Below, piece by piece: positions 16,922 to 51,370 of a DNA stretch of 51,599 nt (the stretch's first letter is position 1; each line of letters starts with the position of its first letter). Both the position numbers and the translations under genes were made by a program. The notes under the pieces were generated by a model. It did not search any database, had not been told where the DNA came from, and saw only the letters and a program-made list of their open reading frames with translations. The stretch is from a bacterium (lineage in GTDB: Bacteria > Patescibacteriota > Patescibacteriia > Patescibacteriales > GWC2-42-12), in assembly GCA_030649205.1 (NCBI GenBank), contig JAUSGE010000029.1:1-51599 (forward strand). Reading direction: 5' to 3'.

Positions 16922-17950
16922 ATGAATTTGAATAATTTAGAAAAAGCGTTGAGTGAAGAGCCAAAGTTCAGATTGAAACAGGCCAAACAAGCGATTTTTG
17001 TTGACTTAACAGATAACTGGGACAAAGCGACGATTTTTTCTTTGCCGTGGCGCGAAAAATTAAACCAAGACTGTCCGCTGGGAATTAAAGCGGAAATTTT
17101 TAAAAGCCATGATAAAAATTCTTTGAAGGCTTTGATTGATTTAGCTGACGGTCTAAAAATTGAAACCGTCTTGCTTAAGCATGCTGACGGACGTAACACA
17201 GTTTGCGTGTCGTCGCAGGTCGGCTGCGCGCTCGGCTGTTTGTTTTGCGCCACCGGAAAGATGGGCTTTAAAAGAAATTTAACAGTTGATGAAATTATTG
17301 AGCAGGTTTTGTTCTGGGCGCGGCAGTTAAAACATAACCCCCCAACCCCCCTTTCAAAGGGGGGCGCCGGAGGGTTAAACATTGTTTTCATGGGCATGGG
17401 CGAACCATTTTTAAATTATGATAACGTCCTGGCCGCGATTAAAATTTTAAACTCCGCGGATGGTTTAAACATCGGCGCCCGGCATATTTCCATTTCCTCG
17501 GTCGGCGTTAGCGACGGCATCAAAAAATTAGCCAAAGAAAACTTACAGCTTAACCTGGCGCTATCACTGCACGCGCCTTCAGATAACCTGCGCGCGGAAA
17601 TTATTCCTTATAACAGCGCCAACCCTCTAAAAAATTTAATTAAAGACCTAATCTATTATCTGAAGCAAACCGGTCGGCGCGTCATGATTGAATATTTAAT
17701 GATTGACGGCTTAAATGATTCGCCGGAGCAAGCGCTAAAATTAGCAGAACTTTTAAAAAATATTGATCCGCCGCTATTTTTCGTTAATTTAATTGCCTAT
17801 AATCCGACCGCTGACTTTAAGCCATCAACCCCGCGAGCAATCTTTGAATTTAAAAAAATCCTAAGAGATAAAAAAATTGACGTGACCGAGCGCTACCGCT
17901 TCGGCCAGGATATCAGCGCTGCCTGCGGACAATTGGTGGGGAAGCTTTAA
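16922..17950 (+). CDS. rlmN: 23S rRNA/tRNA (adenine-C2)-methyltransferase RlmN (radical SAM)
   Basis: CALGCLFCATG (CxxxCxxC), FMGMGEPFLNYDNV, and a C-terminal SAACGQL. It carries an in-frame palindromic repeat at 17335-17380. Confidence 0.9.
   Translation: MNLNNLEKALSEEPKFRLKQAKQAIFVDLTDNWDKATIFSLPWREKLNQDCPLGIKAEIFKSHDKNSLKALIDLADGLKIETVLLKHADGRNTVCVSSQVGCALGCLFCATGKMGFKRNLTVDEIIEQVLFWARQLKHNPPTPLSKGGAGGLNIVFMGMGEPFLNYDNVLAAIKILNSADGLNIGARHISISSVGVSDGIKKLAKENLQLNLALSLHAPSDNLRAEIIPYNSANPLKNLIKDLIYYLKQTGRRVMIEYLMIDGLNDSPEQALKLAELLKNIDPPLFFVNLIAYNPTADFKPSTPRAIFEFKKILRDKKIDVTERYRFGQDISAACGQLVGKL
17335..17380. repeat. Family E C-run/G-run palindrome located inside the rlmN reading frame
   Basis: aaccccccaacccccctttcaaaggggggcgccggagggttaaac encodes NPPTPLSKGGAGGLN. 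The same architecture occurs at 24995-25065, 30282-30315, 30633-30667 and 30747-30779. Confidence 0.85.
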
Positions 17951-18004: not shown

Positions 18005-19318
18005 ATGACAATAAACAATATCAAAACTAATCATAAAATAATACGAGGAGATTCAAGGCGGATGAAAGAATTGGCCAACGATTCTGTCCATTTAGTAATT
18101 ACATCGCCGCCATATTGGCAGCTAAAAGACTATGGTACTGAAAATCAAATTGGTTATCACGATAGTTATGAAAATTACATAAATAATCTAAATTTAGTTT
18201 GGCAAGAATGCTACCGGGTTTTAGAAAATGGCTGCCGTTTATGTATTAATATCGGAGATCAGTTTGCTCGTTCGGTTTATTATGGGCGATATAAGGTTAT
18301 ACCAATAAGAACAGAAATTATTAAATTTTGTGAAACTATTGGTTTTGATTATATGGGATCCATTATTTGGCAAAAATCTACCACCATGAACACGACAGGC
18401 GGAGCAACAATCATGGGATCATTTCCTTATCCTCGAAATGGGATCATTAAACTTGACTATGAATTTATTTTGATATTTAAGAAAAACGGGGAGCCACAAA
18501 AATTAAATAAAGAATTAAAAGAATTATCAAAACTAACCAAGGAAGAATGGAATTTATATTTTCAGGGGCACTGGCATTTTAACGGAGTAAGGCAAGATGA
18601 CCATATTGCAATGTTCCCCGAAGAATTGCCAAAAAGATTGATAAAAATGTTCTCTTTCGTCGGCGATACAATAGTTGATCCATTTGTGGGCAGTGGCACA
18701 ACATTATTGGCTGCAAAAAATTTAAGCCGAAATTCTGTTGGTTATGAAATAAATCCGAAATTTATAAATACAATCAAACAAAAATTAGAAGTTAACACTA
18801 ACAAAATGTTTGATAATTCAACTGCGAACTTTATAGATCAAGGCAATACAAAAAGTGATTACAGCGAAGAAATTTCCAAATTGCTTTATATTTTTAAAGA
18901 CCCTATTAAACTTGATAAAAAAATAGACCTAAAAAAATTACAATTTGGATCGAAAATAGATGATAGCAAGACACAAAGAATAGATTTTTTTACCGTAAAA
19001 GAAATAATAGATCCGAAAACGATTAAATTAAACAACGATTTAGTTGTTAAATTATTGGGTATAAAAATTAATCCTGAAAAAAGCGAGGACGCTAAAAAAT
19101 ATTTATTAAATAAAACCAACAAACAAAAAGTTTTTTTAAAATTTGATAACTTAAAATACGATAAAGAAAACAATTTATTGTGTTATTTATATTTACAAAA
19201 TAAAACTTTTATTAACGCTCATTTAATTAAAGAAGGATATGTTTTTGTCAATAATGAAATGGATTACAAATGTAAAGAAAAATTTATTAATTTATCTCAA
19301 AATAATTATGAAAAATAA
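18005..19318 (+). CDS. Type II DNA methyltransferase (beta-class N4-C/N6-A amino-MTase) fused to a C-terminal staphylococcal-nuclease-like OB domain
   Basis: Motif IV VITSPPYW lies near the N-terminus and motif I FVGSGTTLLAA downstream (PF01555-type order). The C-terminal LLGIKINPEK...CYLYLQNKTFINAHLIKEGYV is SNase-like. The region is clearly more AT-rich than its flanks. Confidence 0.8.
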   Translation: MTINNIKTNHKIIRGDSRRMKELANDSVHLVITSPPYWQLKDYGTENQIGYHDSYENYINNLNLVWQECYRVLENGCRLCINIGDQFARSVYYGRYKVIPIRTEIIKFCETIGFDYMGSIIWQKSTTMNTTGGATIMGSFPYPRNGIIKLDYEFILIFKKNGEPQKLNKELKELSKLTKEEWNLYFQGHWHFNGVRQDDHIAMFPEELPKRLIKMFSFVGDTIVDPFVGSGTTLLAAKNLSRNSVGYEINPKFINTIKQKLEVNTNKMFDNSTANFIDQGNTKSDYSEEISKLLYIFKDPIKLDKKIDLKKLQFGSKIDDSKTQRIDFFTVKEIIDPKTIKLNNDLVVKLLGIKINPEKSEDAKKYLLNKTNKQKVFLKFDNLKYDKENNLLCYLYLQNKTFINAHLIKEGYVFVNNEMDYKCKEKFINLSQNNYEK

Positions 19319-20006
19319 AACATCAAAGAAATTTTCAGCCGATTTCGGCAAAAAGGAAAAGGTGTTAAATTATGCTTGCCAAACTTATCAATTGTCCCGA
19401 CCCAATAAAGTCGGTGCGGTAATGGCATTAATAAGAGAATGCCAACCCAAGACAATAGACGAATGGGAAAAATGGTATTTTGAAAAAGCATTTACTGAAA
19501 GCAAGGAACCCATAAAGGTAACACAAGAAATTTTGAAAGAATTGGGCGAGCGCTTGCATGAAAAAATTACCGAGGTTGTCATACCAGAATGGCAAGCCGC
19601 TTTCATCGAATTATCGCTACAAGATTGCAAAGATTATATTTATAACCTGACAATAAATCGTACTTACGATGGTTTTATTCGTGAAAAATCTGTTGTCAAC
19701 GATGGATTAGCTAAACATTTTCCAGAAGTAAAATTTATTGAAAGCGACAACGACCTTGATCATGCTGGAGATATAGATTATTTAGGATTTGTAGACGAAA
19801 AAGCTTTCGGAATACAAATCAAACCGATTACTGCAAAAGCAAATTTTGGTAATTATTCCGTATCCGAAAGAATGAAAAGGAACTTTCTTGATTTTGAAAA
19901 AAAATATCAAGGCAAGGTATTTATTGTTTTTAGTTTAGACGGAGAGATTGGAAATAAAGAAGTTATAAAGGAGATTGAAACAGAAATAAAGAGACTAAAA
20001 AAATAA
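19308..20006 (+). CDS. Putative type II restriction endonuclease (PD-(D/E)xK-like), translationally coupled to the methyltransferase
   Basis: The ATG at 19308 overlaps the MTase stop (19316-19318) by 11 nt. HAGDIDYLGFVDEKAFGIQIKP fits D-x(n)-(E/Q)-x-K. The track ORF start at 19239 lies inside the MTase gene. Confidence 0.5.
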   Translation: MKNKTSKKFSADFGKKEKVLNYACQTYQLSRPNKVGAVMALIRECQPKTIDEWEKWYFEKAFTESKEPIKVTQEILKELGERLHEKITEVVIPEWQAAFIELSLQDCKDYIYNLTINRTYDGFIREKSVVNDGLAKHFPEVKFIESDNDLDHAGDIDYLGFVDEKAFGIQIKPITAKANFGNYSVSERMKRNFLDFEKKYQGKVFIVFSLDGEIGNKEVIKEIETEIKRLKK

Positions 20007-20013
20007 AGATTAT

Positions 20014-21033
20014 TTACAATTTTGTGACTAATTTAGTTATATCTTTAACACAGTTTATGCGGTAGGCCTCTTTAACCTGTACTCTCTGCCCCAATAAATC
20101 CAAACGACCGGAGGATAGTTTATAAAATGGGCAGCCCCTTGCAAATGCAACCACTCCGGTTGTCTGAAAATCTCTAATGTCAACCACACCATCTTTAAGG
20201 CCATTGAATGTAAATATGGCCCCTTGCGTAGTTAATAAAGATTCTATATCGCCATCAATCGCAGTTAATACGGTGTGATAAGCAGAAGCTGGCCCCATAT
20301 ATTGAGTGAGACGATTTTTTATAATTAAATGTACCTTAGGTAAAGTGCGTTGTGCTTCTTTCAACTTTTCAGCAAAGGCGTATTTTGCATAAATTTCTGA
20401 CGGCAATTTCAGGCCATAGATAAGCGAAAAAACATTTTGAATCGCTCTCCTAGACGAATCATCCGCCATCACCGGCAGAAGTAGCATTTCTGCTGATGAC
20501 AATGCAATTTGAGTATAAATAGAAAAGCTGGGGTTTGTATCAATAAAAATAACGTCGTACTTATCATTTAACGGTTTAATAAAATCGCTAAGCCAATCAA
20601 TGATTGAAATCCATGTGTTGGTGCCAGGAATTTGGTTATTTGCCAAAGTTGATATTGCATTAGCTTGAAGTTCTAATAACGGATCGCCGCACAAAAGATC
20701 AATATTTTTTGGTACCTGATCATTATATTGGAAGGGCTTTGTCAAAAAATCCTGTGGAACAAACGAAGGAGTACTATAAGGAGAAGGTAATCTTATCTGG
20801 AAATATCCACCGATAGTTGCTCTCACGGATTCGCCTTGACGTTTTAATAAATTATCACTACCTCCGTGATGCAATCCGCCTAAAAACAATTCGGAAAGAT
20901 TGGCCTGAGGACAGACATCAATCGATAGAACTCTTTCTTTTGGATGATTATCCGCATAAGTACATATTGTCTGAAAGGCAAGACTTGTTTTGCCCGTTCC
21001 CCCTTTATTATTCCAAAATACATACTTTTTCAT
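20014..21033 (-). CDS. ParA/MinD-superfamily P-loop ATPase (orphan; no ParB partner seen)
   Basis: Deviant Walker A NNKGGTGKTS at residues 8-17. Walker B-like VIFIDTNPS. 339 aa. It converges on the endonuclease gene with an 8-nt gap. Confidence 0.75.
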   Translation of the reverse strand: MKKYVFWNNKGGTGKTSLAFQTICTYADNHPKERVLSIDVCPQANLSELFLGGLHHGGSDNLLKRQGESVRATIGGYFQIRLPSPYSTPSFVPQDFLTKPFQYNDQVPKNIDLLCGDPLLELQANAISTLANNQIPGTNTWISIIDWLSDFIKPLNDKYDVIFIDTNPSFSIYTQIALSSAEMLLLPVMADDSSRRAIQNVFSLIYGLKLPSEIYAKYAFAEKLKEAQRTLPKVHLIIKNRLTQYMGPASAYHTVLTAIDGDIESLLTTQGAIFTFNGLKDGVVDIRDFQTTGVVAFARGCPFYKLSSGRLDLLGQRVQVKEAYRINCVKDITKLVTKL

Positions 21034-22811: not shown

Positions 22812-22991
22812 TGTCATTGCGAGGAGCTGCCTTTAGCCCCGTGCTTGACACGGGGGACGAAGCAATTTCCGGTTAAGAGCCACGTTCGTGAGATTGTCAT
22901 GGCTACGCCAGATCTCGCGTAGCGATTGGCTTCGCTCCTTTCCCGCCTCGGCTTCGCCGTTAGGCGAGACGGGCAGTCGCTCGCAATGACA
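22812..22991. repeat. Composite 180-nt family A palindromic element filling the nusA-hppA spacer
   Basis: It starts with tgtcattgcgag and ends with ctcgcaatgaca. Internal modules are gacgaagcaat and gggcagtcgctcgc. The track ORF 22814..22996 is its translation. Confidence 0.85.
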
Positions 22992-23002: not shown

Positions 23003-24994
23003 ATGACCCTAACAACCCTATTCATCATCGGCAGTGCCATTTTAGCCATTGCCTACGGCCTGATTTTAATCAGCCTGGTCATGCGCTTGCCGGCCGGCAA
23101 TGAAAAAATGCAAGCCATTGCCAAAGCTATTCAGGAAGGAGCCAAAGCTTATTTAAACCGCCAGTACAAAACTATCGCCGTCGCGGCCGCGATCATTTTT
23201 TTAATCATAGGTTTAATTCCCAAATTAGGCTGGTCTATGGCCGCGGCTTTTTTGCTGGGCTCGTTTTTGTCGGCCTTAACCGGCTATATCGGTATGAATG
23301 TCTCGGTGCGGGCCAATGTCCGTACTGCTGAAGCTGCCAGAGGCGGACTGGCCAAGGCTTTGAAAGTTGCGGTTCAAGGCGGCAATGTTACCGGCATGCT
23401 GGTGGTCGGCCTGGCGCTCTTGGGCACGGCCGGTTTTTATTTTATTACTCATGACATTCGCGCCTTAATCGGCCTGGGTTTCGGCGGTTCGCTGATTTCC
23501 ATTTTTGCGCGCTTGGGCGGCGGCATTTTTACCAAAGCCGCGGACGTAGGCGCTGATTTAGTGGGCAAAGTTGAGGCCGGCATTCCGGAAGACGACCCGC
23601 GCAACCCGGCCGTAATTGCCGATAACGTGGGCGACAATGTGGGCGACTGCGCCGGCATGGCCGCGGACCTGTTTGAAACTTACGTGGTCACTTGCGTTGC
23701 CACCATAATTTTAGGCACGCTATTATTCTCCGGTTTTCAAAACGCCGTGCTTTATCCTTTGGTCATCGGCGCGGTTTCCATTATAACATCAATTATCGGC
23801 AGTTTCTTTATTAAACTAGGCAAGAGCCAAAACATCATGAACGCCTTATATAAAGGTTTGATTGTGGCCGGAGTTCTGGCCGCGATTGCTTTTTATCCGG
23901 TTACCAGCCGGCTGATGGCGGGCAACGGCTCTTACAGCGTCATCAACTTATATTTAGCCTCGCTCATCGGACTGGCCGTGACCGCGGCCATGGTCGTGAT
24001 CACCGAATACTACACTTCAAAAAGCTACGCGCCGGTAAAGTCAATCGCTGAAGCATCGCGCACCGGCCATGGCACCAACATCATCGCCGGCCTGGCTGTT
24101 TCCATGAAATCCACGGTTTGGCCCATAGTGGCTATCGTAGCCGCGATTTTGGGCGCTTACAGCCTAGCCGGACTTTACGGCGTGGCCGTGGCCGTCATGG
24201 CCATGCTGTCCATGGCCGGCATCATTGTGACCATTGATTCTTACGGCCCGATTACGGATAACGCGGGCGGCATTGCCGAAATGGCGGAAATGGGCGACGA
24301 GGTGCGCGCCGTTACCGACCCGCTGGACGCGGTCGGCAATACCACCAAGGCCGTGACTAAAGGCTATGCCATCGGTTCAGCCGCCTTAGCGGCGCTGGTA
24401 CTGTTCGCCGATTACACGCACAGCCTGCCGGACACTTACCAATTTTTAATCAATGACCCCCGAGTTTTGGCCGGCCTATTTTTAGGCGGACTATTGCCGT
24501 ATTATTTCGGCGCCCTGGCCATGCAAGCCGTGGGCAAAACCGCGGGCGCGGTAGTGGATGAAGTGCGCCGCCAATTTAAGGAAAAGCCCGGCATCATGGC
24601 CGGCACGGACAAACCTGATTACGGCCGCACCGTGGACATTGTTACCAAAGCGGCCATTGCGCAAATGATTGTTCCGGCTTTAATTCCGGTAGCCGCGCCG
24701 ATTTTGGTGGGTTTTATTTTAGGCGTACAAGCCCTGGGCGGCTTATTGGTCGGCTCCATCATCACCGGAATTTTTGTGGCCATTTCCATGACCTCGGGCG
24801 GCGGCGCCTGGGACAACGCTAAAAAATATATTGAAGACGGCAATTTCGGCGGCAAGGGTTCGGACGCGCATAAAGCGGCCGTGACCGGCGACACGGTCGG
24901 CGATCCTTATAAAGATACGGCCGGCCCGGCCATAAACCCGATGATTAAGATCTTAAACATTGTGGCGTTATTGATAGTGGGGTTGCTGGTATAA
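23003..24994 (+). CDS. hppA: Membrane-integral proton/sodium-translocating pyrophosphatase
   Basis: [39 protein letters not shown], a C-terminal [21 protein letters not shown], and about 15 TM helices. Confidence 0.95.
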
Positions 24995-25365
24995 AACCCC
25001 CTTTAACAAAGGGGGTTAGGGGGATTTAATTTAATCCCCCTTGTAAAGGGGGATTAAGGGGGTTTTGTCATTGCGAGCGTTAGCGAAGCAGTCTCCGGTT
25101 TATTTTCGGTATCCTTACCATTACCCGTCATCCCTGCCCGTCTCGCGTCGGCGCGAGCCGAGGCGGGCGAAAGCAGGGATCCAGAAAGAATTGTCATTGC
25201 GAGGAGCGCCTTTAGCCCCCGACCCGATCGGGGGGACGAAGCAATCTCCGGTTAAATGGCATAATGCTCGGCTAGGGAAAATTATTTTTTAAATTTTCTA
25301 CCCGGCTTTAGCCGGAGTTAATCCAGCCTTTTGTCATGCCGGCCTTGAGCCGGCATCCAGGAGGG
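24995..25365. repeat. 370-nt intergenic block built entirely of nested palindromic units (families E, A, B, D)
   Basis: 24995-25065 holds two E units. A units lie at 25066-25098 and 25192-25254. 25127-25190 is a long B hairpin, 25298-25320 is a D unit, and 25331-25365 is gtcatgccggcc/ggccggcat. Confidence 0.85.
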
Positions 25366-25388
25366 AGCGGCAGAAATGAAATTATTGC

Positions 25389-26309
25389 ATGAAACAACAA
25401 AATAAATTTTATCAAAAGAATAACCTAATGTTTTATGCGTTAATAATTTTTATTATTACTTCTCTTTTTATTGGTACGGGAGTTTATCTATGGCAAAATT
25501 CAGTACTTAAGGCGACTAAAATTAATTACAACTCCGAGATAGCTGATCTACAAAACAAAATAACCGGCCTGCAAAAAACAAGCTCCAATGATGACAAGGG
25601 GGCGGAATATCAATTTTCGGAAGTATCTGCTAGCAAGCTCAAAAAGGATAGTGCCGTTTCCTTAACTCCTAACGAAGGATTTTTTATCACTACCTCAATA
25701 TTATCAAATAAAAAGGACAGGATTGTTTATTTGGAAATGAGCAATTCAATAAAGAACATTAAAAATAATTATAACGCTTACTGGGACTACAGTATTTATG
25801 TAAAGAATCTCGCGAATGGGGAAATCAGAAAAATTTATTCCCCGACTACCGGCCTTTGTTCGTCAGTATACTTTCCTATCGCCTGGTCCAGTAATGATGT
25901 AAAAATAATATTAGAGTATGCGCTTCCTCATGATGGGTGCGGATCCGGCGCTGCCCCGTATTATTATACGGCCGCGATTAATCCAAACGACGGCGATCTT
26001 TCCGTTTTAGCCACTGACGATCCCTTATTTATTAATAATTACGAAAGCGTTATATATGTTGAAACGAGCGCAAATTCTCCCGTTGAATGCGGACCTCCGG
26101 GGGATATTAACAGCGGCGCGGTAATTCTTAAAAACATTAATGCAAACAGTGAAAAGATCTTAGCGGAAGAAAAAAATTCAGATTACACAATAGTGAATAT
26201 TGACAGTGAAAATATACTTACTTACACGGTAAAAAAAGTTAAGGAAGCGGACGGCTGTTCTCAACTTGACGAGTCTATACCGGAAAAAACACTGAAAATA
26301 AAAATATAA
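25389..26309 (+). CDS. Hypothetical membrane-anchored extracytoplasmic protein
   Basis: 306-aa ORF with an N-terminal TM helix (MFYALIIFIITSLFIGTGVYLW). The remainder is beta-rich with no recognised motif. Confidence 0.55.
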   Translation: MKQQNKFYQKNNLMFYALIIFIITSLFIGTGVYLWQNSVLKATKINYNSEIADLQNKITGLQKTSSNDDKGAEYQFSEVSASKLKKDSAVSLTPNEGFFITTSILSNKKDRIVYLEMSNSIKNIKNNYNAYWDYSIYVKNLANGEIRKIYSPTTGLCSSVYFPIAWSSNDVKIILEYALPHDGCGSGAAPYYYTAAINPNDGDLSVLATDDPLFINNYESVIYVETSANSPVECGPPGDINSGAVILKNINANSEKILAEEKNSDYTIVNIDSENILTYTVKKVKEADGCSQLDESIPEKTLKIKI

Positions 26310-26310
26310 T

Positions 26311-26595
26311 AATTCCTGCGGCTCACCCCTGGATTGCGGGTCAAGCCCGCAATGACAATATAAAAATACCAAAAATAAGCGTAATATTAAGAATGTAATC
26401 ACTAAATTACGCCAAATAGCGGGAATAACAAATAAAATGATAAAAAAATTAAATCCCCCTAATCCAGACTGTCCGAAAAGTACCGTCATTCCTGCGAAGG
26501 CAGGAATCCAGAAAAAATATTTGGCTAAAATTAAACTATTTCTGGATCCCCGTTTTCACGGGGATGACGAATTTATGAGTTCTCGGACAGTCTGG
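26311..26595. repeat. Palindromic repeat cluster including a ~130-nt composite hairpin
   Basis: 26333-26356 is attgcgggtcaagcccgcaatgac. The outer stems ccagactgtccga (26464-26476) and tcggacagtctgg (26583-26595) enclose two B-type hairpins at 26485-26514 and 26539-26568. Confidence 0.8.
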
Positions 26596-26609
26596 GCAGA
26601 TAAAATAAT

Positions 26610-27902
26610 ATGACCATCACCAAAAAATCCTTAGGCAATTCGCAAGTTGAAATAATCGTGGAGTTAACGGCCGATGAATTTAAGCCGTACACTTTGCGCG
26701 GCGCGGAAAAAGTGTCGCGCGAAGTTAAAATTGAAGGCTTCCGGCCGGGCAAAGTTCCTTACGGCATCTTAAAAGCCAAAATCGGCGAAATGACGATTCT
26801 GGAAGAAGCGGCGCGCATCGCCATTGATAAAACCGCTGACCAGGCGGTTAAAAATAATATTGCTGATCAGCTGGTGGGCCAGCCGCAGATCAGCATCACC
26901 AAATTGGCGCCTGACAACCCGCTGGAATACAAAATCACAGTCACGCTTTTGCCCGATGTAAAATTAGGAAATTACCAAGATTTAAAAATCAAAGAAGCCG
27001 CCGCTGTCGCCACTGACCAGGAAGCGGAAAAATTAATCGCCGAACTGCGCGAGATGCGCGCGCATGAAGAAGCCTCTGACGCTGAAGTTAAAGATAACAA
27101 TCGCGTCATCCTGGACATAGAAATATTTTTGGACAAAGTTCCGGTGCAAGGCGGACAAGGCAAAGATACCTCGGTTTTAATCGGCAAAAATTATGTCATT
27201 CCGGGTTTTGACAAGCAAATACTCGGCTTAAAAAAAGGCGAGACGCGCGACTTTAGCCTGCCTTATCCGGCCGAATATCATGACAAAAATTTAGCCGGCA
27301 AATTGGCTGAATTCAGAGTTAAAATAAAAGGCATTTTTAACCGCGTTCTGCCGGAAGTTAATGACGACTTTGCCAAAGGCTTTGGCTTAAAATCGCCGGC
27401 CGAGCTAAAAAGCAATATTAAAAAAAGCCTGACCGCGGAAAAAGAACAGGCGGAGGCGCGTAAAAGCGAAACTGCCATGCTGGATAAAATAATCAGCGCT
27501 TCAAAATTCGGCGACATTCCGGAAATCTTAATCAAGCATGAGGCTGAAGTCATGATAAGCGAACTGGAGCATAACGTTAAACAACAGGGCGCGAAGTTTG
27601 ATGATTATTTAATTCATCTTAATAAGACGCGGAATCAAATCATGCTGGACATGATGCCGGACGCAGTCAAACGGGTAAAAGTTTCCTTGATTATTAGAGA
27701 GGTGGCCAAGCTGGAAAAAATTTCCGTTGACCATGAAGAAATTCATAAAGTAATTGACGGCCTGGCCAAACAATACCGAGGCAACCAGGCCGTGCTGGAC
27801 AGAATCAACAATCACGCTTATCATGATTACGTGGAAAATAATTTGACCGGAAAAAAAGTCATGGAAAAATTAAGAGAGTGGAATGTTCACCCTGTTAAAT
27901 AG
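26610..27902 (+). CDS. tig: Trigger factor
   Basis: N-terminal ribosome-binding domain with IEGFRPGKVPYGILKAKIG, a central PPIase-like segment (GKNYVIPGFDKQILGLKKGE), and a C-terminal arm domain. Confidence 0.9.
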   Translation: MTITKKSLGNSQVEIIVELTADEFKPYTLRGAEKVSREVKIEGFRPGKVPYGILKAKIGEMTILEEAARIAIDKTADQAVKNNIADQLVGQPQISITKLAPDNPLEYKITVTLLPDVKLGNYQDLKIKEAAAVATDQEAEKLIAELREMRAHEEASDAEVKDNNRVILDIEIFLDKVPVQGGQGKDTSVLIGKNYVIPGFDKQILGLKKGETRDFSLPYPAEYHDKNLAGKLAEFRVKIKGIFNRVLPEVNDDFAKGFGLKSPAELKSNIKKSLTAEKEQAEARKSETAMLDKIISASKFGDIPEILIKHEAEVMISELEHNVKQQGAKFDDYLIHLNKTRNQIMLDMMPDAVKRVKVSLIIREVAKLEKISVDHEEIHKVIDGLAKQYRGNQAVLDRINNHAYHDYVENNLTGKKVMEKLREWNVHPVK

Positions 27903-27955
27903 CGCTTCGCGCTAATTTTGCCTTCAGCAAAATTATTTAACAGGGTAAAAATAAT

Positions 27956-28438
27956 ATGCCGGTACTGGCAGTCAATAAACGCGCTAATTTTGATTATGAC
28001 ATCCAAGAAACTTATGAAGCCGGCTTGGTGCTTTTGGGGCATGAGGTTAAAGCCGTTAAAACCGGTCATGTCAGCCTGAAAGGCAGTTATGTTACTTTTA
28101 AAAAACGCGCTGGCCAAAATTTGCCCGAAGCCTATTTGACCAACGCGCATATTCCCTTATACAAGCACGCGGGCAAAATTACTAACTACGAACCGGCCCG
28201 GCCCAGAAAACTGCTGTTAAAAAAGAAAGAGCTCGCATATTTAATGGGCAAAAAAGATGAGCAAGGCTTGACATTAGCGCCCATAAAAATATATACTAAG
28301 CGTAGTTTTATTAAGCTGGAATTCGGCGTGGGCAAAGGCCGAAAGAAATATGATAAGCGGGAAGTAATAAAGAAAAGAGAATTAGACAGGAATATTAGGA
28401 CCTTAACAAAGAATAAAATTCTAAATACGAAATTCTAA
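27956..28438 (+). CDS. smpB: SsrA-binding protein SmpB
   Basis: NKRANFDYDIQETYEAGLVLLGHEVKAVK...; a basic C-terminal tail; tmRNA lies immediately downstream. Confidence 0.95.
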   Translation: MPVLAVNKRANFDYDIQETYEAGLVLLGHEVKAVKTGHVSLKGSYVTFKKRAGQNLPEAYLTNAHIPLYKHAGKITNYEPARPRKLLLKKKELAYLMGKKDEQGLTLAPIKIYTKRSFIKLEFGVGKGRKKYDKREVIKKRELDRNIRTLTKNKILNTKF

Positions 28439-28557
28439 ATTCTAAACAAATCCAAAATAGTAAATTCAAAATTCCAAACGAGATGCAGACAGTTTTGAAC
28501 ATTTGGATTTTGAGTTTGTTTAGGATTTAGATATTAGAGTTTAGAATTTAAAAATTT

Positions 28558-28943
28558 GGGGATGCCAGGCATCGATAATAAAATTTTTTTTCAGCATTCA
28601 GAAGTGCGCGTTAGCCGTCACTTTAATCCGAGCTAGCTAACATAATAAGTGCCAAAAACTTATTAAGCAAAATGACATTCTCTTGGAGAATGCCCGCTTT
28701 TGCGCCAGTTGCCGCTTAATTGCCGCAACCATCCGCCCGGCCTAGCCTAAGGGTCGGATCACGGGTGTCATATTTTAGGCTCGTACAGTCGTCCGCTTTA
28801 GGCGATTGTCTTAAAAATTTAAAGCTAGCCGCGGCCGATTTTGTCCGGTTTTTACGGGCGCGGCGAAACAACAAACCGCTCTAATCTGTAAACTTGCTTT
28901 AAAAAATTTATTAGACAGGGGTTCAATTCCCCTCATCTCCACC
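28558..28943 (+). ncRNA. ssrA: tmRNA (SsrA)
   Basis: The 5' ggggatgcc pairs with the 3' tRNA-like end ggggttcaattcccctcatctccacc. The candidate tag frame is 28651-28719: GCC resume codon, AKNLLSKMTFSWRMPAFAPVAA, then TAA. It lies directly after smpB. Confidence 0.85.
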
Positions 28944-28949
28944 GGGCAA

Positions 28950-29032
28950 GGTCCAGTGGCGGAACTGGTATACGCACAACACTTAAAATGTTGCGTCTTA
29001 TAGGCATGTGGGTTCGACTCCCACCTGGACCA
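28950..29032 (+). tRNA. tRNA-Leu (anticodon TAA), long variable arm
   Basis: Acceptor ggtccag/ctggacc. Anticodon stem caaca/tgttg with loop ctTAAaa. T arm gtggg-ttcgact-cccac. Discriminator a. Confidence 0.9.
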
Positions 29033-29042
29033 CTAGATAAAC

Positions 29043-29114
29043 GCGGGTATCGTATAATGGCTATTATATTACCTTGCCAAGGTAGAGATACGGGTTCGAT
29101 TCCCGTTACCCGCT
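29043..29114 (+). tRNA. tRNA-Gly (anticodon GCC)
   Basis: Acceptor gcgggta/tacccgc. Anticodon loop ttGCCaa. T arm acggg-ttcgatt-cccgt. Discriminator t. Confidence 0.9.
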
Positions 29115-29165
29115 CCGATAGGCAAAATTGACAAAAAATTATTATTAAGCTAATATCCAAACATT

Positions 29166-29498
29166 ATGTTAATGATTAGATTATCAAGAATTGGCAAAAA
29201 GAATAAGCCGTTTTATCGCGTCATTATTTCGCCCAAGCAAAAGGACCTTTACGGCGATGCTTTGGAAATTTTGGGTTCATATAATCCTCACACTAAAGAG
29301 CTGAAAATCAACGCGGAAAAAACCAAATACTGGCTATCAAAGGGCGCCGGTATGTCGGACACGGTTAATAATTTGCTGATTGAAAAAAAAATAGTTGAAG
29401 GCAAAAAGGTTAAGGCGTCAAAAGACAGGAAGCCCAAAAAGGCGCCGGCCCAGGCCGCGCCGGTTGCAGCGCCGGCAGGAACTCCGGCTCAAGCTTGA
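29166..29498 (+). CDS. rpsP: 30S ribosomal protein S16 with an A/P/K-rich C-terminal extension
   Basis: MLMIRLSRIGKKNKPFYRVIISPKQKDLYGDALEILGSYNPHT. Confidence 0.95.
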   Translation: MLMIRLSRIGKKNKPFYRVIISPKQKDLYGDALEILGSYNPHTKELKINAEKTKYWLSKGAGMSDTVNNLLIEKKIVEGKKVKASKDRKPKKAPAQAAPVAAPAGTPAQA

Positions 29499-29616
29499 CA
29501 AATATTTAATTTGTGTTATAATAAAATAACCCTAATTTAGGGAATAATAATTAAAAAAATCTTTCACTTCTGACAGGAAAATTTAATAAGTCAGCTTTGA
29601 AAGAACCAGAAAAACT

Positions 29617-29949
29617 ATGGCTGCCAAACCAACAGATCAAGCATTCTTGGAGTTCATCGCCCAGTCCGTCGTTTCTAACCCTGACGCGGTATCAGTGGAA
29701 AGAACGGTTGATGAAATGGGAGTACTATTGACTCTGAAACTCGATCCGGCTGATATGGGATATATCATCGGACGAAAAGGCCAAACCGCTCAAGCGATCC
29801 GCACTTTGCTGAAAATCGTCGGCGCTAAGAACAACGCCCGCGTGAACCTAAAAATTTACGAGCCCGAAGGCTCGCGCCGGCCGGCCAGAAGCGAAAGAAG
29901 CGAAAGCGCCGGTATTGACACTTCATCGGTTGATGATTTAAAAATCTAA
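29617..29949 (+). CDS. KH-domain RNA-binding protein (YlqC/UPF0109-like)
   Basis: MGYIIGRKGQTAQAIRTLLKIVG (GxxG KH core). The position after rpsP is conserved. Confidence 0.85.
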   Translation: MAAKPTDQAFLEFIAQSVVSNPDAVSVERTVDEMGVLLTLKLDPADMGYIIGRKGQTAQAIRTLLKIVGAKNNARVNLKIYEPEGSRRPARSERSESAGIDTSSVDDLKI

Positions 29950-30059
29950 CAGCAAAAATAGATATAAACAAAAAGCCACATTAACTTGTGGCTTTTTGTT
30001 TCTACTGTCATTCCCGTCCTTGTCATTCCCGCGAAAGCGGGAATCCATTTCCTTATTAT

Positions 30060-30758
30060 ATGACCTTCCACATCATCACAATTTTTCCTCACATCTTTGA
30101 CTCTTATTTTAACGAGTCAATTCTTAAGCGCGCGCTAACCAATAAATTGATCACTATAAAAATTCATAACCTGCGCGACTGGACAACGGACAAGCATCAA
30201 ACCGTGGACGACGCCCCGTTCGGCGGCGGCGCCGGCCTGGTCATGAAGATTGAACCATTATACAAAGCCCTGCGCGATATTACCCCCCTTGCAAAGGGGG
30301 GCAGGGGGGTTAAAACCATATTATTATCCGCTAAGGGCAAAACCTGGAACCAGCGCCTGGCAAAATCGCATAGCCAGCTTAAGAATATCATCCTAATCTG
30401 CGGCCGCTACGAAGGCGTGGATGAAAGAATCACAAAATTTATTGACGAAGAAATTTCCATCGGCGATTATATTTTAACCGGCGGCGAGATCGGCGCTCTG
30501 GCCATTATTGACTCCATCACCCGCCTTCTGCCCGGCGCTTTAGGCAACGCGGACAGCGCCAAATACGAATCGCACTCCACTGCCGGTGTTTTAGAACATC
30601 CGCATTACACCCGCCCGGAAATTTTTACCGCCACCCCCCTTATAAAGGGGGGCAGGGGGGTTAAATCCTACCGCGTTCCCAAAGTATTATTATCCGGTAA
30701 TCATAAAAAAATAGCCGACTGGCGCGCCAAAAAATCAAAGCGCCTTCACCCCCTTTAA
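30060..30758 (+). CDS. trmD: tRNA (guanine37-N1)-methyltransferase TrmD, carrying two in-frame repeat insertions
   Basis: The start is the ATG at 30060 (MTFHIITIFPHIF); the track start at 29988 lies in repeat DNA. Motifs: DDAPFGGGAGLVMK, ICGRYEGVDERI, ISIGDYILTGGE, LLSGNHKKIADWR. Repeats at 30282-30315 and 30633-30667 encode TPLAKGGRGVK and TPLIKGGRGVK. Confidence 0.9.
   Translation: MTFHIITIFPHIFDSYFNESILKRALTNKLITIKIHNLRDWTTDKHQTVDDAPFGGGAGLVMKIEPLYKALRDITPLAKGGRGVKTILLSAKGKTWNQRLAKSHSQLKNIILICGRYEGVDERITKFIDEEISIGDYILTGGEIGALAIIDSITRLLPGALGNADSAKYESHSTAGVLEHPHYTRPEIFTATPLIKGGRGVKSYRVPKVLLSGNHKKIADWRAKKSKRLHPL
30282..30315. repeat. Family E palindrome inside trmD (copy 1)
   Basis: accccccttgcaaaggggggcaggggggttaaaac. 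Confidence 0.85.
30633..30667. repeat. Family E palindrome inside trmD (copy 2)
   Basis: accccccttataaaggggggcaggggggttaaatc differs from copy 1 in the hairpin loop (gc versus at) and in the last 3 nt. Confidence 0.85.
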
Positions 30759-30947
30759 CAAAGGGGGTTAGGGGGATTTTTATCGTTTTTGGCTCCATAG
30801 TGCCGTCAGGCCTGTGGAGCCGTTTTGTTTATTTGTCATTCCCGCCCGTCTCGCGTCGGCGCGAGCCGAGGCGAGCGCAGGAGGGAATTCAAAAATTTAT
30901 TGTCATTGCGAGAAGCCTGTAATCAGGCGACGAAGCAATCTCACGAA
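30747..30947. repeat. Repeat cluster E + C + B + A after trmD; the E unit contains the trmD stop codon
   Basis: 30747-30779 caccccctttaacaaagggggttagggggattt (TAA at 30756-30758). Also 30791-30821 (C), 30836-30895 (long B hairpin) and 30901-30947 (A left half). Confidence 0.85.
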
Positions 30948-31022
30948 GACTCGAAGTTGACATAAACAAAGCGAGAGAGATATAATTACAATATAATTTC
31001 AAAATATTTAATCATACATGTT

Positions 31023-31436
31023 ATGCAAGCACAAGACCTGCAACAAATCGGCCAGTTAATGGACGAAAAACTTAAAGAGAATAACAAAATATTAAAAGAG
31101 GAAATAACCAGCGAATTGACTAAAAAAATTGATAATAAAATTGATGAATTGGCAATTACTGTAAATTCAGCCTTTAGCGAACAAAAAGAATATTTAGATG
31201 AAAAGTTTGTTGAAATAGACAAAAAGTTTGTTGAAATAGGCGATAACTTCAAAGAGGTTAAAGAAGAAATAGCTAAACGGCCGACCACGGATAAAATGTT
31301 TTCCTGGGCGGATGAAAGGATAACGACTTTGGAACTGGACACGGATAAAATAAAATATCTGCATCGTGAAGAATGGAAAAAATTGCCAAGCGCTCCAGAG
31401 ATAAATAAGTCTCTAATAGAAGCGGGCATTAATTAA
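31023..31436 (+). CDS. Hypothetical coiled-coil protein
   Basis: 137-aa ORF, K/E-rich, with an internal tandem EKFVEIDKKFVEIGDNF. A terminator follows. Confidence 0.5.
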   Translation: MQAQDLQQIGQLMDEKLKENNKILKEEITSELTKKIDNKIDELAITVNSAFSEQKEYLDEKFVEIDKKFVEIGDNFKEVKEEIAKRPTTDKMFSWADERITTLELDTDKIKYLHREEWKKLPSAPEINKSLIEAGIN

Positions 31437-31459
31437 TAAATCATTTAACATTAGCCATA

Positions 31460-31487
31460 AAAATCGTCATTCGTTGACGATTTTTTG
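31460..31487 (+). terminator. Rho-independent terminator
   Basis: aaaatcgtca-ttcgt-tgacgatttt followed by ttg. Confidence 0.8.
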
Positions 31488-31678
31488 ATTTTATGCTATG
31501 GTTAGCAGTTAGTTCTTTTAGCATTGTTATGCCAAACAGAACCAAATCGAACCTTTATATCTCCCTCTTGACCTGTTTATTTTTAGGCAGGCCAAGGGTG
31601 AGGCACAAAGGTTCGATTGTCGGACTTTGAAAATTGAAAAACAACAAACAATCAAAAAAATTTTGGAGGAAAATTATC

Positions 31679-37669: not shown

Positions 37670-37784
37670 TGTCATTGCGAGCGACCGAAGGGAGCGCGGC
37701 AATCTCACGGACAATTAATTTTAGAAAAAGTTCGATGTTTGTGAGATTGCTTCGTCGCCCGAGTACAGGCTCCTCGCAATGACA
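37670..37784. repeat. Full-length family A palindromic element (115 nt)
   Basis: tgtcattgcgagcgaccgaagggagcgcggcaatctcac ... gtgagattgcttcgtcgcccgagtacaggctcctcgcaatgaca. Confidence 0.9.
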
Positions 37785-37790: not shown

Positions 37791-38222
37791 CTAGGTCGGT
37801 ATAGTCCCGGTAGTCGCCCCAATCAATTGGTTGATGACAAAATTAGCCAGGGCAAAAGACGCTAAAATAATCACTAAGCCGATAACGCCGGCGATTAAAA
37901 TCTTCTTGGCCGCGGCCACATTTTCTTCATTGCCGCCGGCCGTCATCCAGCGAAAACCGGCGTAAAGAATTAATATAACCGCGATAATTCCCAAAAATCC
38001 CAGGGCAATATTGATTATCTTCACCGCCAGCAGGCGAGGATCATTATCGTTGACCCCGCCCAGAGGCCCGTTGTTGATCTCGTTGCGCACGCCGTTCCCC
38101 CAAATTTGATCCAAATTCGTGGCCGCCAAAATCGGCGCCGGCGAAGCAACGGCCAAGGCCCAGCCCAAAACCAATAAAATCATTGGCAGGGCAATAATCG
38201 TTTTATGCCTTTTTTTTCTCAT
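37791..38222 (-). CDS. VirB2/TrbC-like T4SS-pilin family protein
   Basis: Signal peptide, then YAGFRWMTAGGNEENVAAAKKILIAGVIGLVIILASFALANFV. Confidence 0.75.
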   Translation of the reverse strand: MRKKRHKTIIALPMILLVLGWALAVASPAPILAATNLDQIWGNGVRNEINNGPLGGVNDNDPRLLAVKIINIALGFLGIIAVILILYAGFRWMTAGGNEENVAAAKKILIAGVIGLVIILASFALANFVINQLIGATTGTIPT

Positions 38223-38251
38223 AATCTTAATTTTAAATATTAATTTATTTT

Positions 38252-38647
38252 TTATTCCATGCCAGTCGTGGCCTTAAAAATCTGGCTAATCACAAAATTA
38301 GCCAGCGCGTAGGAAGCTAAAATAATCACCAAGCCGATAACGCCGGCGATTAAAATCTTCTTGGCCGCGGCCACGTTTTCTTCATTGCCGCCGGCCGTCA
38401 TCCAGCGAAAACCGGCGTAAAGAATTAAAACCACGGCTATAACGCCTAAAAAGCCTAAAGCTATGTTAATAATGTCAATAATTGTGAACCTAATATCCCG
38501 CGGCGCGCCTGATTGGTAGGCCTGGCCAACCTGGTTCAATCCTCCGGTTTGAACTTTTTCCAAAATGGTTTCCGCTCTGGCCTGAAGCGGCAACCCGGAC
38601 AATAATATCATTGCCGCTAACGCAACAGCTAAGTTATGCTTAAGCAT
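38252..38647 (-). CDS. VirB2/TrbC-like T4SS-pilin family protein
   Basis: Signal peptide, then YAGFRWMTAGGNEENVAAAKKILIAGVIGLVIILASYALANFV. A 98-nt tract is 97/98 identical to the downstream paralog. Confidence 0.75.
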   Translation of the reverse strand: MLKHNLAVALAAMILLSGLPLQARAETILEKVQTGGLNQVGQAYQSGAPRDIRFTIIDIINIALGFLGVIAVVLILYAGFRWMTAGGNEENVAAAKKILIAGVIGLVIILASYALANFVISQIFKATTGME

Positions 38648-42986: not shown

Positions 42987-43334
42987 ATGGCCAAAGAAAC
43001 AACCGGCACCATAATTAATGCCCAAGACCTGAAACCCGGCATGACCGTCAGAATTCATCAAAAAATTAAAGAACTCAACGCCAAGGGCGAAGAAAAGGAA
43101 AGGGTGCAATACTACGAAGGCATCATCATCGCCAAAAAGCACGGCAATGAAGCCGGCGCCACTATCACGGTGAGAAAGGTTTCCGACGGCGTGGGCGTGG
43201 AAAAAATCTTTCCCATTCATCTGCCTTCAATCACAAAGATTGAAATCAAAAAGCAAGCCAAAGTAAAGCGCGCTAAACTTTACTTCCTGAAGAAAGGCTA
43301 TAAGAAAAAACTTAAAGAAGTAAAACTCGCTTAA
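42987..43334 (+). CDS. rplS: 50S ribosomal protein L19
   Basis: RVQYYEGIIIAKKHGNEAGATITVRKVSDGVGVEKIFPIHLPSITKIEI. Confidence 0.95.
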   Translation: MAKETTGTIINAQDLKPGMTVRIHQKIKELNAKGEEKERVQYYEGIIIAKKHGNEAGATITVRKVSDGVGVEKIFPIHLPSITKIEIKKQAKVKRAKLYFLKKGYKKKLKEVKLA

Positions 43335-47318: not shown

Positions 47319-47320
47319 AT

Positions 47321-47444
47321 GCTCGGTCTGAAAAAATTGTTTTTCCTGCTTAGACAAAATTTGGGCGATTTTTGTAAAAAGTATTTTTTACAAAAATCGC
47401 TACAATTTTGTATGCGCGATAAAAACAACTTTTTCAGACCAAGC
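47321..47444. mobile_element. MITE: internally deleted derivative of the IS at 35488-36659 (both terminal repeats, no transposase)
   Basis: gctcggtctgaaaaaattgtttttcctgcttagacaaaatttgggcgattttt matches the IS right end (reverse complement). aaaaatcgctacaattttgtatgcgcgataaaaacaactttttcagaccaagc matches the IS left end (reverse complement). Confidence 0.85.
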
Positions 47445-47456
47445 AAAGCATCTATC

Positions 47457-47499
47457 TGTCATTGCGAGGGAGCGCTAGCGACCGAAGCAATCTCACGAA
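47457..47499. repeat. Family A left half-element
   Basis: tgtcattgcgagggagcgctagcgaccgaagcaatctcacgaa. Confidence 0.85.
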
Positions 47500-48073: not shown

Positions 48074-48508
48074 TTAACTTCCGCCAACTATCGTTCCCGT
48101 ACTATTAACTCCCGATAAACTCTGAAACACGAAATAAGTGATGGCATAGGCGGCAAGAATAATGATCAGGCCGATGATCGCCCGCGTTAACGTATTTTTG
48201 GCTTTAGTAACCTTTTCATCATCGCCTTGCGCCGTCATCCAGTTATAACCGGCGTAAATGATTAACACTAAAAAAATTATGCCCAATAAACTTAAAAATA
48301 CGCTAACCACATCTTTGATCAAGTTTGGTAAATCGGCGGCCGGATCATTTACTGGAGTTCCCCAGCCGGTTGTTCCCGCGCTATCCAACTGGGTTTGTAA
48401 ATCATCCGCGGCGCTTGCTCGGCTAAACTGAACGGTGAAAACAAAACTAACAGCCATGGCCGCTATAAATAAAAAGCTAAAAATTAATTTTGTGTATGTT
48501 TTTATCAT
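48074..48508 (-). CDS. VirB2/TrbC-like T4SS-pilin family protein (array member 8, last in transcription order)
   Basis: The start is the ATG at 48508 (MIKTYTKLIF...); the track N-terminus MARLLRRDYAARNDK is repeat DNA. YAGYNWMTAQGDDEKVTKAKNTLTRAIIGLIIILAAYAITYFV. Confidence 0.75.
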   Translation of the reverse strand: MIKTYTKLIFSFLFIAAMAVSFVFTVQFSRASAADDLQTQLDSAGTTGWGTPVNDPAADLPNLIKDVVSVFLSLLGIIFLVLIIYAGYNWMTAQGDDEKVTKAKNTLTRAIIGLIIILAAYAITYFVFQSLSGVNSTGTIVGGS

Positions 48509-48519
48509 AACTTTACTTT

Positions 48520-48628
48520 TGTCATTGCGAGCCGCGTAATCGCGGCGAAGCAATCTCGCCAATAGCGTCTCTTGACCAAACTCGCCATCCGTTAGATTGC
48601 TTCGTCGCTGGCGCTCCTCGCAATGACA
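48520..48628. repeat. Full-length family A palindromic element (109 nt) between two pilin genes
   Basis: tgtcattgcgagccgcgtaatcgcggcgaagcaatctcgcc ... gattgcttcgtcgctggcgctcctcgcaatgaca. Confidence 0.9.
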
Positions 48629-48634
48629 TCAAAG

Positions 48635-49042: not shown

Positions 49043-49044
49043 AA

Positions 49045-49497: not shown

Positions 49498-49567
49498 AAT
49501 TATCGCGACCTATATGATTGATTAGTTAATCTTAATTTTTACTAAATTTCCTGTAGATTTGCGGGTG

Positions 49568-49942: not shown

Positions 49943-49947
49943 GATTA

Positions 49948-50756: not shown

Positions 50757-50764
50757 AATTACTG

Positions 50765-51157: not shown

Positions 51158-51167
51158 AAACTCTATC

Positions 51168-51267: not shown

Positions 51268-51370
51268 ATCTGATTTTCCACTGCTCTAAGCGCAAAAATT
51301 TATCTTACGCTTACGGCAGTGGCCCCGGAAACGGCCGGGAACCACTTTTTTTACTAATATTAAGGTTATT

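Follow-up and report, generated by a model that had tools for sequence, protein, structure and literature searches.

Several kinds of short palindromic repeat are known from within bacterial genes. Rickettsia palindromic elements (RPEs) lie in frame in Rickettsia genes and are translated, according to the account of Ogata et al. 2000 given in PMC10969869. MITEs, the miniature transposable elements with inverted repeats, can form in-frame fusions with host open reading frames (ORFs) (PMC10969869). Repetitive extragenic palindromic sequences (REPs) also occur inside genes, and REP termini can supply stop codons (PMC3733652); REPs and REP doublets forming hairpins (REPINs) are mobilised by REP-associated tyrosine transposases (RAYTs), which are IS200-like Y1 enzymes (PMC3116915; PMC3733652). 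Here we analyse a 51,599-nt stretch of a Patescibacteriota metagenome contig (JAUSGE010000029.1, positions 1 to 51,599; 42.7% G+C; hereafter the window), in which trmD, the gene for the tRNA m1G37 methyltransferase, carries two in-frame copies of a short hairpin built of C- and G-runs and takes its stop codon from a third. Most probably, these copies are selfish hairpin repeats of the REP/RPE type, about 30 nt long, which are kept where a stop-free insertion of a multiple of three nucleotides meets a permissive loop. The element is new relative to the known kinds in its ten-codon size, its turnover at hot spots, its presence in a second host gene (rlmN) and the occurrence of its core motif across phyla.

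The host gene is a typical trmD. Its product matches Pfam PF01746 (E 3.4e-50, 170.9 bits against a cutoff of 27.3) and solved TrmDs in the Protein Data Bank (E down to 3e-58), and the invariant columns GRYEGVDER, LTGGE and YTRP of the family are all present. We place the start at ATG 30060 and not at GTG 29988 of the mechanically called ORF; the resulting MTFHI opens all 120 relatives described below.

Copies 1 and 2 share the layout A-C6-TT-NNN-AA-G6-CA-G6-TT, with an 8-bp hairpin (C6TT/AAG6) and a 3-nt loop that corresponds exactly to one codon (GCA = Ala78 in copy 1, ATA = Ile195 in copy 2). They are 92% identical over 36 nt, the differences being two loop bases and one base of the trailing TTAAA(A/T)C. 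Copy 1 lies in the linker preceding the ILLSAKG strand and copy 2 between YTRPEIF and VPKVLLSGNH. Copy 3, at the 3' end of trmD, is of another subfamily (about 67% identity to the other two). CCC CTT TAA is read from its left arm and loop, giving Pro-Leu codons followed by the trmD stop. Its 30-mer recurs identically behind the H+-pyrophosphatase gene hppA, where a further copy stands in direct tandem with it, and a double-armed copy lies in frame within rlmN (Table 1). A degenerate pattern search of the window returned seven matches, compared with 0.00 expected from 100 shuffles, and a repeat finder grouped six window copies, in register, as one family. The family can be summarised by the consensus (A/T)-C5-6-T2-3-N3-4-A2-3-G5-6, then 1-4 nt of spacer, (A)G5-6 and finally (A)TT. 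Three of the seven copies are gene-internal, one overlaps a stop codon and two abut one. The original prediction, made from the letters of the window, had described the two in-frame units in trmD and the third unit that donates the stop, and their sequences, coordinates and peptides proved to be as it gave them. Its list overlooked the rlmN copy and the two copies near hppA, and what it took for three insertions of one mobile palindrome is a dispersed palindromic element, as it proposed, though one with two subfamilies here and more in relatives.

Comparison with relatives supports the view that the copies are a dispersed palindromic element and not native TrmD sequence. We collected 120 TrmD homologues (55-87% identity), all from Patescibacteria-type assemblies (NCBI, JGI, ENA, Logan). 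The closest proteins carry the names of Falkowbacteria, Parcubacteria or Patescibacteria metagenome-assembled genomes, in keeping with the lineage of the window. At site 2, which holds copy 2, alignment to Pseudomonas aeruginosa TrmD leaves a 12-residue gap exactly at TPLIKGGRGVKS. The site is empty in 45 of the 120 relatives, where the segment from YTRP to VLLS measures 22-23 residues with the consensus YTRPEIFTANGKKYRVPKVLLS, and filled in 75, where the segment measures 29, 30, 33, 34, 40 and up to 63 residues. Recognisable element peptides, for example TPLxKGGRGVK or the nested APLVRGG-RLARRSLGVG-GGVK, are present in 63 of the 75 filled relatives. At the DNA level, the window allele reads GCC ACC CCC CTT ATA AAG GGG GGC AGG GGG GTT AAA TCC and the empty allele of relatives reads GCC AAC GGC AAG TCT, so that the filled state is a net gain of 24 nt. 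The same architecture is seen in independent assemblies from all four sources.

Site 1, which holds copy 1, is a hypervariable linker of 21-65 residues in relatives. It is often made of a simple repeat rich in Lys and Ser (AAATCAAAAATCAAAAATC...) or of other sequence derived from repeats, and a C/G-hairpin peptide occupies it in 30 of the 120. Because the window linker (26 residues) is about as long as the plain version (25), the event at this site was a replacement of the linker and not a mere addition. The proposal of insertion at both internal sites therefore holds for site 2, by comparison with both the solved TrmDs and the 45 empty relatives, while site 1 is better described as exchanged. 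The 3' ends vary as well. In 62 relatives TrmD stops two to four residues after KKSK, which is the short native end; 13 finish in ...P(L/S)-stop as in the window, matching the donation of the stop by copy 3; in eight the frame continues across the hairpin (PPLTKGG, SPLIKGD); and eight finish in VIARS.., the translation of an unrelated GTCATTGCGAG element. The C-terminus in this clade lies about seven residues past the WR(A)KK helix, and P. aeruginosa TrmD runs about 30 residues further.

The rlmN copy has the structure AACCCCCC-AA-[C6TT-TCA-AAG6]-CGCC-GGAGGG-TTA, with a C-run arm on its left and a degenerate G-run arm on its right, and it encodes the peptide NPPTPLSKGGAGGL; as in copies 1 and 2, the loop (TCA) makes up exactly one codon. 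The closest solved structure of this radical S-adenosylmethionine (SAM) methyltransferase is 6fz6 (E 5e-70), and alignment to solved RlmN and Cfr proteins leaves a gap of 8-12 residues at the insert. In 102 of 120 RlmN relatives the site is empty (a segment of 32 residues, compared with 40 in the window), and in 18 it is filled at the same point, the occupant being a member of the C/G hairpin family or of other palindromic families. DNA from three relatives, one empty and two filled, confirmed the insertion.

Table 1. Coordinates of the hairpin copies, their host genes and other features of the window.
Feature	Position	Strand	Sequence or layout	Remark
trmD coding sequence	30060..30758	+		232 aa; ATG at 30060, TAA at 30756-30758
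Copy 1, subfamily A	30282..30311	+	ACCCCCCTTGCAAAGGGGGGCAGGGGGGTT, then AAAAC	peptide TPLAKGGRGV(K); hairpin C6TT/AAG6 30283-30301, loop GCA 30291-30293, second G-run 30304-30309
Copy 2, subfamily A	30633..30662	+	ACCCCCCTTATAAAGGGGGGCAGGGGGGTT, then AAATC	peptide TPLIKGGRGV(K); hairpin 30634-30652, loop ATA 30642-30644, second G-run 30655-30660
Copy 3, subfamily B	30748..30777	+	C5-TTT-AAC-AAA-G5-TTA-G5-AT	overlaps trmD 3' end
Intergenic copy, subfamily B	24996..25025	+	identical to copy 3	two bases past TAA of hppA (23003-24994)
Second intergenic copy	25035..25064	+	C5-TT-GTA-AA-G5-ATTA-AG5-TT	direct tandem with 24996-25025
rlmN copy	17336..17377	+	double-armed	in frame in rlmN coding sequence 16922-17950
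Hairpin with T-run	30791-30834			3' of copy 3
Other palindromic families	9024, 14543, 22813-22990, 25067-25248, 26346, 30902-30942, 37671-37783, 47458-47494, 48521-48627, 51169-51266, others			intergenic
Perfect palindrome	6914-6953			18-nt arms
Perfect palindrome	8789-8825			16-nt arms
Perfect palindrome	2275-2309		TGGACACTCGGTGTCCA	17-nt arms; in last codons of DUF6580 gene (1739-2320)
Large inverted repeat	47320-47445			61-nt arms, 82% complementary
Promoter consensus	30957-30986		TTGACA-18 nt-TATAAT	5' of ORF 31023-31436
DNA methylase	18005-19318			N6_N4_Mtase and SNase domains
MjaI-type restriction endonuclease	19239-20006			
ParA-like ATPase	20014-21033	-		
Trigger factor gene	26610-27902			
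smpB	27956-28438			
tmRNA, then two tRNA genes	28558-29114			tmRNA 117.5 bits
rpsP	29166-29498			
KhpA-type KH protein	29617-29949			
rplS	42987-43334			
PF18895 gene arrays	37791-38647, 48074-51583	-		

To place the inserts on the protein fold, as the original prediction had proposed, an AlphaFold2 model of TrmD was built from 81 homologues (mean predicted local distance difference test score 75.7, predicted template modelling score 0.73). Foldseek matched the model to Haemophilus influenzae and P. aeruginosa TrmD with probability 1.00 and a template modelling (TM) score of about 0.6. Insert 1 is modelled as a coil (residues 75-83) between helix 64-74 and strand 84-95, which enters the LLSAKG SAM loop. 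Insert 2 is modelled as the extended tip (192-201) of a beta hairpin formed by strands 188-191 and 202-205 in the C-terminal domain, 12 residues past the conserved Glu179 of the LEHPHYTRP motif. In the predicted TrmD fold, one insert thus falls in a loop and the other at the tip of a beta hairpin.

The occupancy of these sites turns over rapidly. On a neighbour-joining tree of 199 conserved columns, the filled and empty states of site 2 require at least 31 changes, compared with 36 for shuffled states, so the state has close to no phylogenetic signal on a tree that is poorly resolved at this depth. Two pairs of near-identical TrmDs (P0010 and P0013, P0044 and P0055) have identical site-1 inserts and tails and carry different subfamilies at site 2. 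Sharing of a subfamily between sites 1 and 2 within a genome was a trend that did not reach significance (Fisher p = 0.14). The two trmD copies are 91% similar in the window and 94-97% similar in two relatives (L129 and L130), and similarity within genomes, which exceeds that between genomes only weakly, gives modest support for conversion between copies.

We then asked how far the DNA of the inserts exceeds the needs of the peptide. The 74 trmD loci yielded 31 distinct inserts within the gene, and each was compared with 200 synonymous recodings that follow local codon usage. The DNA fold energy was at or below the 2.5th percentile of recodings in 20 of the 31 inserts and below all 200 recodings in nine. 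The palindrome is therefore kept in the DNA beyond what the peptide needs in 20 of 31 inserts, and the test that the original prediction had set against its own proposal, the same peptides encoded by non-palindromic DNA in close relatives, does not refute it. Two inserts (at site 1 of L128 and in L174) look decayed.

All in-gene copies examined comprise complete codons and are free of stops in the host frame. At one point in subfamily B, three distinct coding copies read GGT AAG or GGT AGG and four intergenic copies read GGT TAG in that phase; the loss of TAG from coding copies fits selection for read-through and would argue against splicing or bypass. In copies 1 and 2 and in the rlmN copy the phase is the symmetric one, with the loop read as a codon. 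The frame of copy 3 is shifted by one base with respect to the centre of its hairpin, and this shift exposes the TAA. The earlier observation that all units are read in the same frame is consequently true of the left arm only. The 30-nt cores are open in six of six frames for copy 1 and four of six for copy 2 (two of six for subfamily B), so the frame-selective survival that had been suggested is not needed for copies 1 and 2 and has little force for internal copies. The actual requirements are a length divisible by three, the lack of a stop and a tolerant site.

Among described systems, the behaviour is that of the RPEs (in frame, translated and at protein surfaces), to which no sequence relationship is expected, and of intragenic REPs. 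Like RPEs, the present copies are dispersed palindromes that lie in frame in unrelated housekeeping genes at positions compatible with the fold, in a host with a small genome and with no known transposase; judging by their open frames, they are read through. RPEs are about 100-150 bp long with conserved peptides of about 30-50 residues, well above the roughly 30 nt and ten codons seen here. Unlike RPEs, the element consists of C/G runs, resides in Patescibacteria, has relatives in other phyla and turns over rapidly at fixed hot spots. The likeness to REPs lies in short imperfect palindromes of 20-40 nt that are dispersed (seven copies in 51.6 kb) and mostly extragenic, often stand just 3' of genes and are sometimes intragenic or stop-supplying. 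Several features set the element apart from REPs. GTAG and CGTC tags are missing from the window copies, whose spacers are CA, TTA or ATTA; the copies stand singly or, at 24996-25064, in direct tandem, in contrast to REPINs, and inverted doublets were seen in cyanobacterial loci only; an unusually high share (4 of 7) is coding or overlaps a stop; and no RAYT gene is flanked by the C/G hairpin in the window or in 2.4 Mb of fetched loci. MITEs such as Correia/NEMIS, ERIC and Nezha are likewise non-autonomous short repeats capable of in-frame fusions. They are about 100-400 bp long and have terminal inverted repeats and target-site duplications, so that an element of about 30 nt matches neither their size nor their duplications. 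Elhai and colleagues, cited in PMC5861425 and PMC3116915, reportedly described in 2008 cyanobacterial small dispersed repeats of 21-27 nt that look mobile, some of them nearly palindromic, with no identified enzyme. The C/G hairpin is abundant in Nostoc, Microcoleus and related genomes, and its likeness to these repeats is one of description. We found no account of the element in Patescibacteria, or by its sequence, in the literature. The sole literature match by sequence was to cyanobacterial CRISPR repeats with a GTTCCCCCTTCGGGGGGATC core, which we judged to be unrelated and only superficially alike.

We propose that insertions or recombinational replacements of the element arise often across the genome, and that purifying selection would then remove all copies except frame-keeping, stop-free ones in structurally permissive loops. 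The same hot spots would recur because only such copies are spared. The element may be unusually translatable because its C- and G-runs encode Pro and Gly and seldom stops, and the inserts would be read through as loop extensions rich in Pro, Leu, Lys, Gly and Arg because they are whole codons without stops. At an occupied site, the element is probably renewed or exchanged by gene conversion from other copies in the genome, which may be why the palindrome stays intact, and at gene 3' ends the hairpin loop can supply a stop codon. The likeliest candidates for the mobiliser would be a trans-acting HUH/Y1 (RAYT-like) transposase that recognises single-stranded hairpins, or host recombination or template switching at hairpins. 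A Y1/IS200-like, RAYT-type gene was found in relative L181 (contig Ga0076259_101, 2214-2880; PF01797, 33 bits, cutoff 23). Its flanks carry GTAG-tagged REPs (GTAGAGACGCGATTAATCGCGTCTCTAC), which differ from the C/G hairpin. RAYT-type systems are therefore present in the clade; another copy of the GTAG REP lies in frame within the Y1 gene itself (peptide RRDAINRVST). When the L181 protein was used as a phmmer query over 343 loci, only L181 and L172 themselves were recovered. In L172, 360 nt are missing between two copies of the GTAG REP, and the GTAG REP of L181 also occurs in five cyanobacterial loci (L012, L043, L048, L069 and L127).

Several observations weigh against this proposal. No alignment of filled and empty alleles gave a clean junction of 24 or 30 nt at site 2, where about six host bases are replaced, and site 1 shows no net gain over many relatives (26 residues in the window, 21-25 in the plain linker). 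Candidate target-site duplications (ATATT at copy 1, TACCGC at copy 2) were rejected, both halves being coding sequence in empty alleles. Given that there are neither duplications nor clean junctions, classical transposition is not demonstrated, and the targeted insertion suggested originally finds no evidence. No transposase was present among the approximately 45 ORFs scanned in the window, and no Y1 transposase stands beside a C/G hairpin in the 343 fetched loci (2.4 Mb). Similarity between copies is 0.84 within genomes and 0.81 between them, a difference equalled or exceeded in 82 of 2000 permutations, and with seven genomes the test is weak. Retention of the palindrome could also reflect selection on RNA or DNA structure and not youth or gene conversion, translation of the inserts is deduced from their open frames, and with the closest TrmD relative 87% identical in protein the comparison does not reach the level of strains. 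Between pairs of near-identical loci there was no fresh presence or absence of the C/G element, the indels being those of the GTCATTGCGAG family and the GTAG REP.

The structural properties of the hairpins raise the alternative that they are kept as cis-acting elements, copy 3 and the hppA copies serving as terminators or mRNA stabilisers and the internal copies as translational pause sites or internal attenuators within an operon of genes related to translation. The hairpins are very stable (minimum free energy -18.6 to -25 kcal/mol), the two G-runs of each unit permit mutually exclusive hairpins, four of the seven window copies stand at stop codons or just behind them, and the palindrome outlasts the needs of the peptide. 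Furthermore, an alternative pairing of copy 3 through its second G-run (30751-30775) followed by ATTTTTAT fits the consensus of a terminator scan, although the region gave three matches against 2.3 expected, and copies 1 and 2 fail the pattern, which asks for a G+C-rich hairpin directly followed by a T-run. The internal copies have z-scores of only -1.2 to -1.3 relative to dinucleotide shuffles, because any arrangement of C/G runs folds. A cis-acting role also fits poorly with the 45 TrmD and 102 RlmN relatives that have no insert, with occupants of one site that vary in subfamily, length and orientation, and with the decayed inserts in L128 and L174, and the separate hairpin with a T-run 3' of copy 3 could be the real terminator. 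No Rfam covariance model matched any copy, either in window positions 24500-31500 or in seven loci from other phyla; the strong Rfam matches were tmRNA, tRNAs and, in one unrelated Nostoc locus, HEARO. We consider this explanation unlikely. An adaptive role for the peptides appears less probable still. TrmD and RlmN both bind RNA, the peptides are glycine-rich with a net positive charge (KGGRGVK), one reading phase (PLxKGG) dominates TrmD relatives, and site 2 lies in the C-terminal domain, which contacts tRNA in TrmD-tRNA complexes such as 4YVI, so flexible Lys/Arg/Gly-rich loops might have been co-opted as additional RNA-binding surface and retained by selection. Against this, the presence of the inserts is patchy, with almost no phylogenetic signal, the peptides at a site vary widely (PFNKGGKGDLK, nested forms of 18-40 residues), and the same DNA stands untranslated in intergenic positions and is read in other frames in other phyla.

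Strong hairpins within coding sequence could alternatively be bypassed or excised at the RNA level, as in hairpin-assisted ribosomal hopping or a mini-intron. The whole-codon, stop-free state of all in-gene copies and the loss from coding subfamily B copies of the TAG that intergenic copies retain both count against this, since neither would be needed if the segment were skipped or removed, and there is no pair of take-off and landing codons that match and adjoin a stop; we regard bypass as very improbable. Hairpins of G/C homopolymers are prone to error in metagenome contigs, and an assembly or sequencing artefact must be considered for that reason. Related elements at the same sites in dozens of independent assemblies from four sources, intact frames and identical loci recurring across samples make it the most improbable explanation of all. 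Selfish hairpin repeats filtered by frame and fold thus remain our preferred explanation.

To determine how far the element extends beyond this genome, species-representative genomes were scanned with the pattern CCCCCTT-N3-4-AAGGGGG-N1-3-AGGGGG. The core motif was found in at least 120 genome stretches. Among the matches listed most were from Cyanobacteria (Nostoc, Microcoleus, Oscillatoriales and others), accompanied by Nitrospinota, Deltaproteobacteria, Bacteroidota, Planctomycetota, Desantisbacteria, Poribacteria and Patescibacteria. Positions that the pattern leaves unspecified are conserved among the genome matches listed, with a sixth C in 78% and, behind the final run, G, A and T in 77, 67 and 81%, respectively. 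Copies from other phyla have the spacers GTT, GCT, GC or GT before AGGGGG, and YTAG or GTAG occurs in a subset only. Among the matches listed, 25 of 138 (18%) fall inside long open frames, some exceeding 1000 codons; other phyla use other phases, of which PPLxRGxRG is the commonest. In Nostoc loci the units form inverted doublets reminiscent of REPINs. Viral contigs contained at least 120 stretches, compared with 12 for a mirror-image control of the same composition run on the same contigs (at least ten-fold), about 50 of the listed viral matches being one conserved phage locus. Further C/G-hairpin copies lie in the flanks of the relatives' loci. These results raise the possibility, which we consider doubtful, that C6-TT-loop-AA-G6-spacer-G6-AT is one widespread, unnamed, ultra-small mobile family of Patescibacteria, Cyanobacteria, other phyla and phages, mobilised in trans by an enzyme specific for single-strand hairpins and serving in the streamlined genomes of the candidate phyla radiation (CPR) as a stop-free loop-extension cassette with possible co-option for RNA binding. 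If so, the cassette would recolonise the same permissive loops of essential RNA-modification enzymes, amounting to a natural and ongoing insertional scan of protein tolerance. One cyanobacterial locus with the hairpin pattern (L036, 5484-5701) has a match to HEARO, the IscB-associated omega RNA, above the gathering score and with no overlap with hairpin copies.

The occurrence of these copies suggests that selfish palindromes colonise essential genes in frame not just in Rickettsia but also in CPR bacteria, whose genomes are very small, and do so with an element of only ten codons. The recurrent sites across hundreds of natural alleles would amount to a map of the loops that tolerate insertions in RlmN and in the antibiotic target TrmD. 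A core motif shared across phyla with no associated enzyme also bears on how very small repeats move. For annotation, the elements may account for differences in length, for unusual C-terminal tails (..HPL, ..PPLTKGG, ..VIARSL) and for short spurious ORFs in metagenome-assembled genomes of Patescibacteria.

Upstream of trmD lie rpsP and then the gene for a KhpA-type KH protein. Further upstream, the tmRNA gene and two tRNA genes stand directly 3' of smpB, which is preceded by the trigger factor gene. The usual next gene after trmD is rplS, which in the window lies 12 kb from trmD. A perfect sigma-70-type promoter consensus, embedded in the end of a GTCATTGCGAG-family element, stands 5' of an unannotated ORF with coiled-coil-like features. 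Between rlmN and nusA, the interval 18005-21033 holds a DNA methylase, a restriction endonuclease and a ParA-like ATPase, and it looks like an inserted restriction-modification island because two relatives (L208 and L210) have rlmN-DUF5661-nusA directly.

The window contains at least four other palindromic families, all intergenic and with about 45 motif matches together: GTCATTGCGAG...CGAAGCAATCTC, GTCATTCCCGC...GGGAATCC, GGCTCCATAG/CTATGGAGCC and CCGGCTTTAGCCGG. They fill most intergenic spacers and produce spurious short ORFs, and the GTCATTGCGAG...CGAAGCAATCTC family supplies the TrmD C-terminal tails (..VIARSL) of relatives. Other palindromic repeats pile up behind the tandem pair downstream of hppA, up to 25320. 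The perfect palindromes at 6914-6953 and 8789-8825 combine CCCCC/GGGGG with ATTTAAAT ends (AATTTAAATCCCCCGCCA/TGGCGGGGGATTTAAATT) and may be distant kin of the C/G hairpin family. The third perfect palindrome falls within a gene, and the large inverted repeat lies in a probably spurious ORF. Some ten small paralogous genes in tandem arrays, with domains like those of type IV secretion system pilins and TrbC (PF18895), account for the largest direct-repeat families of the window (D1-D3).

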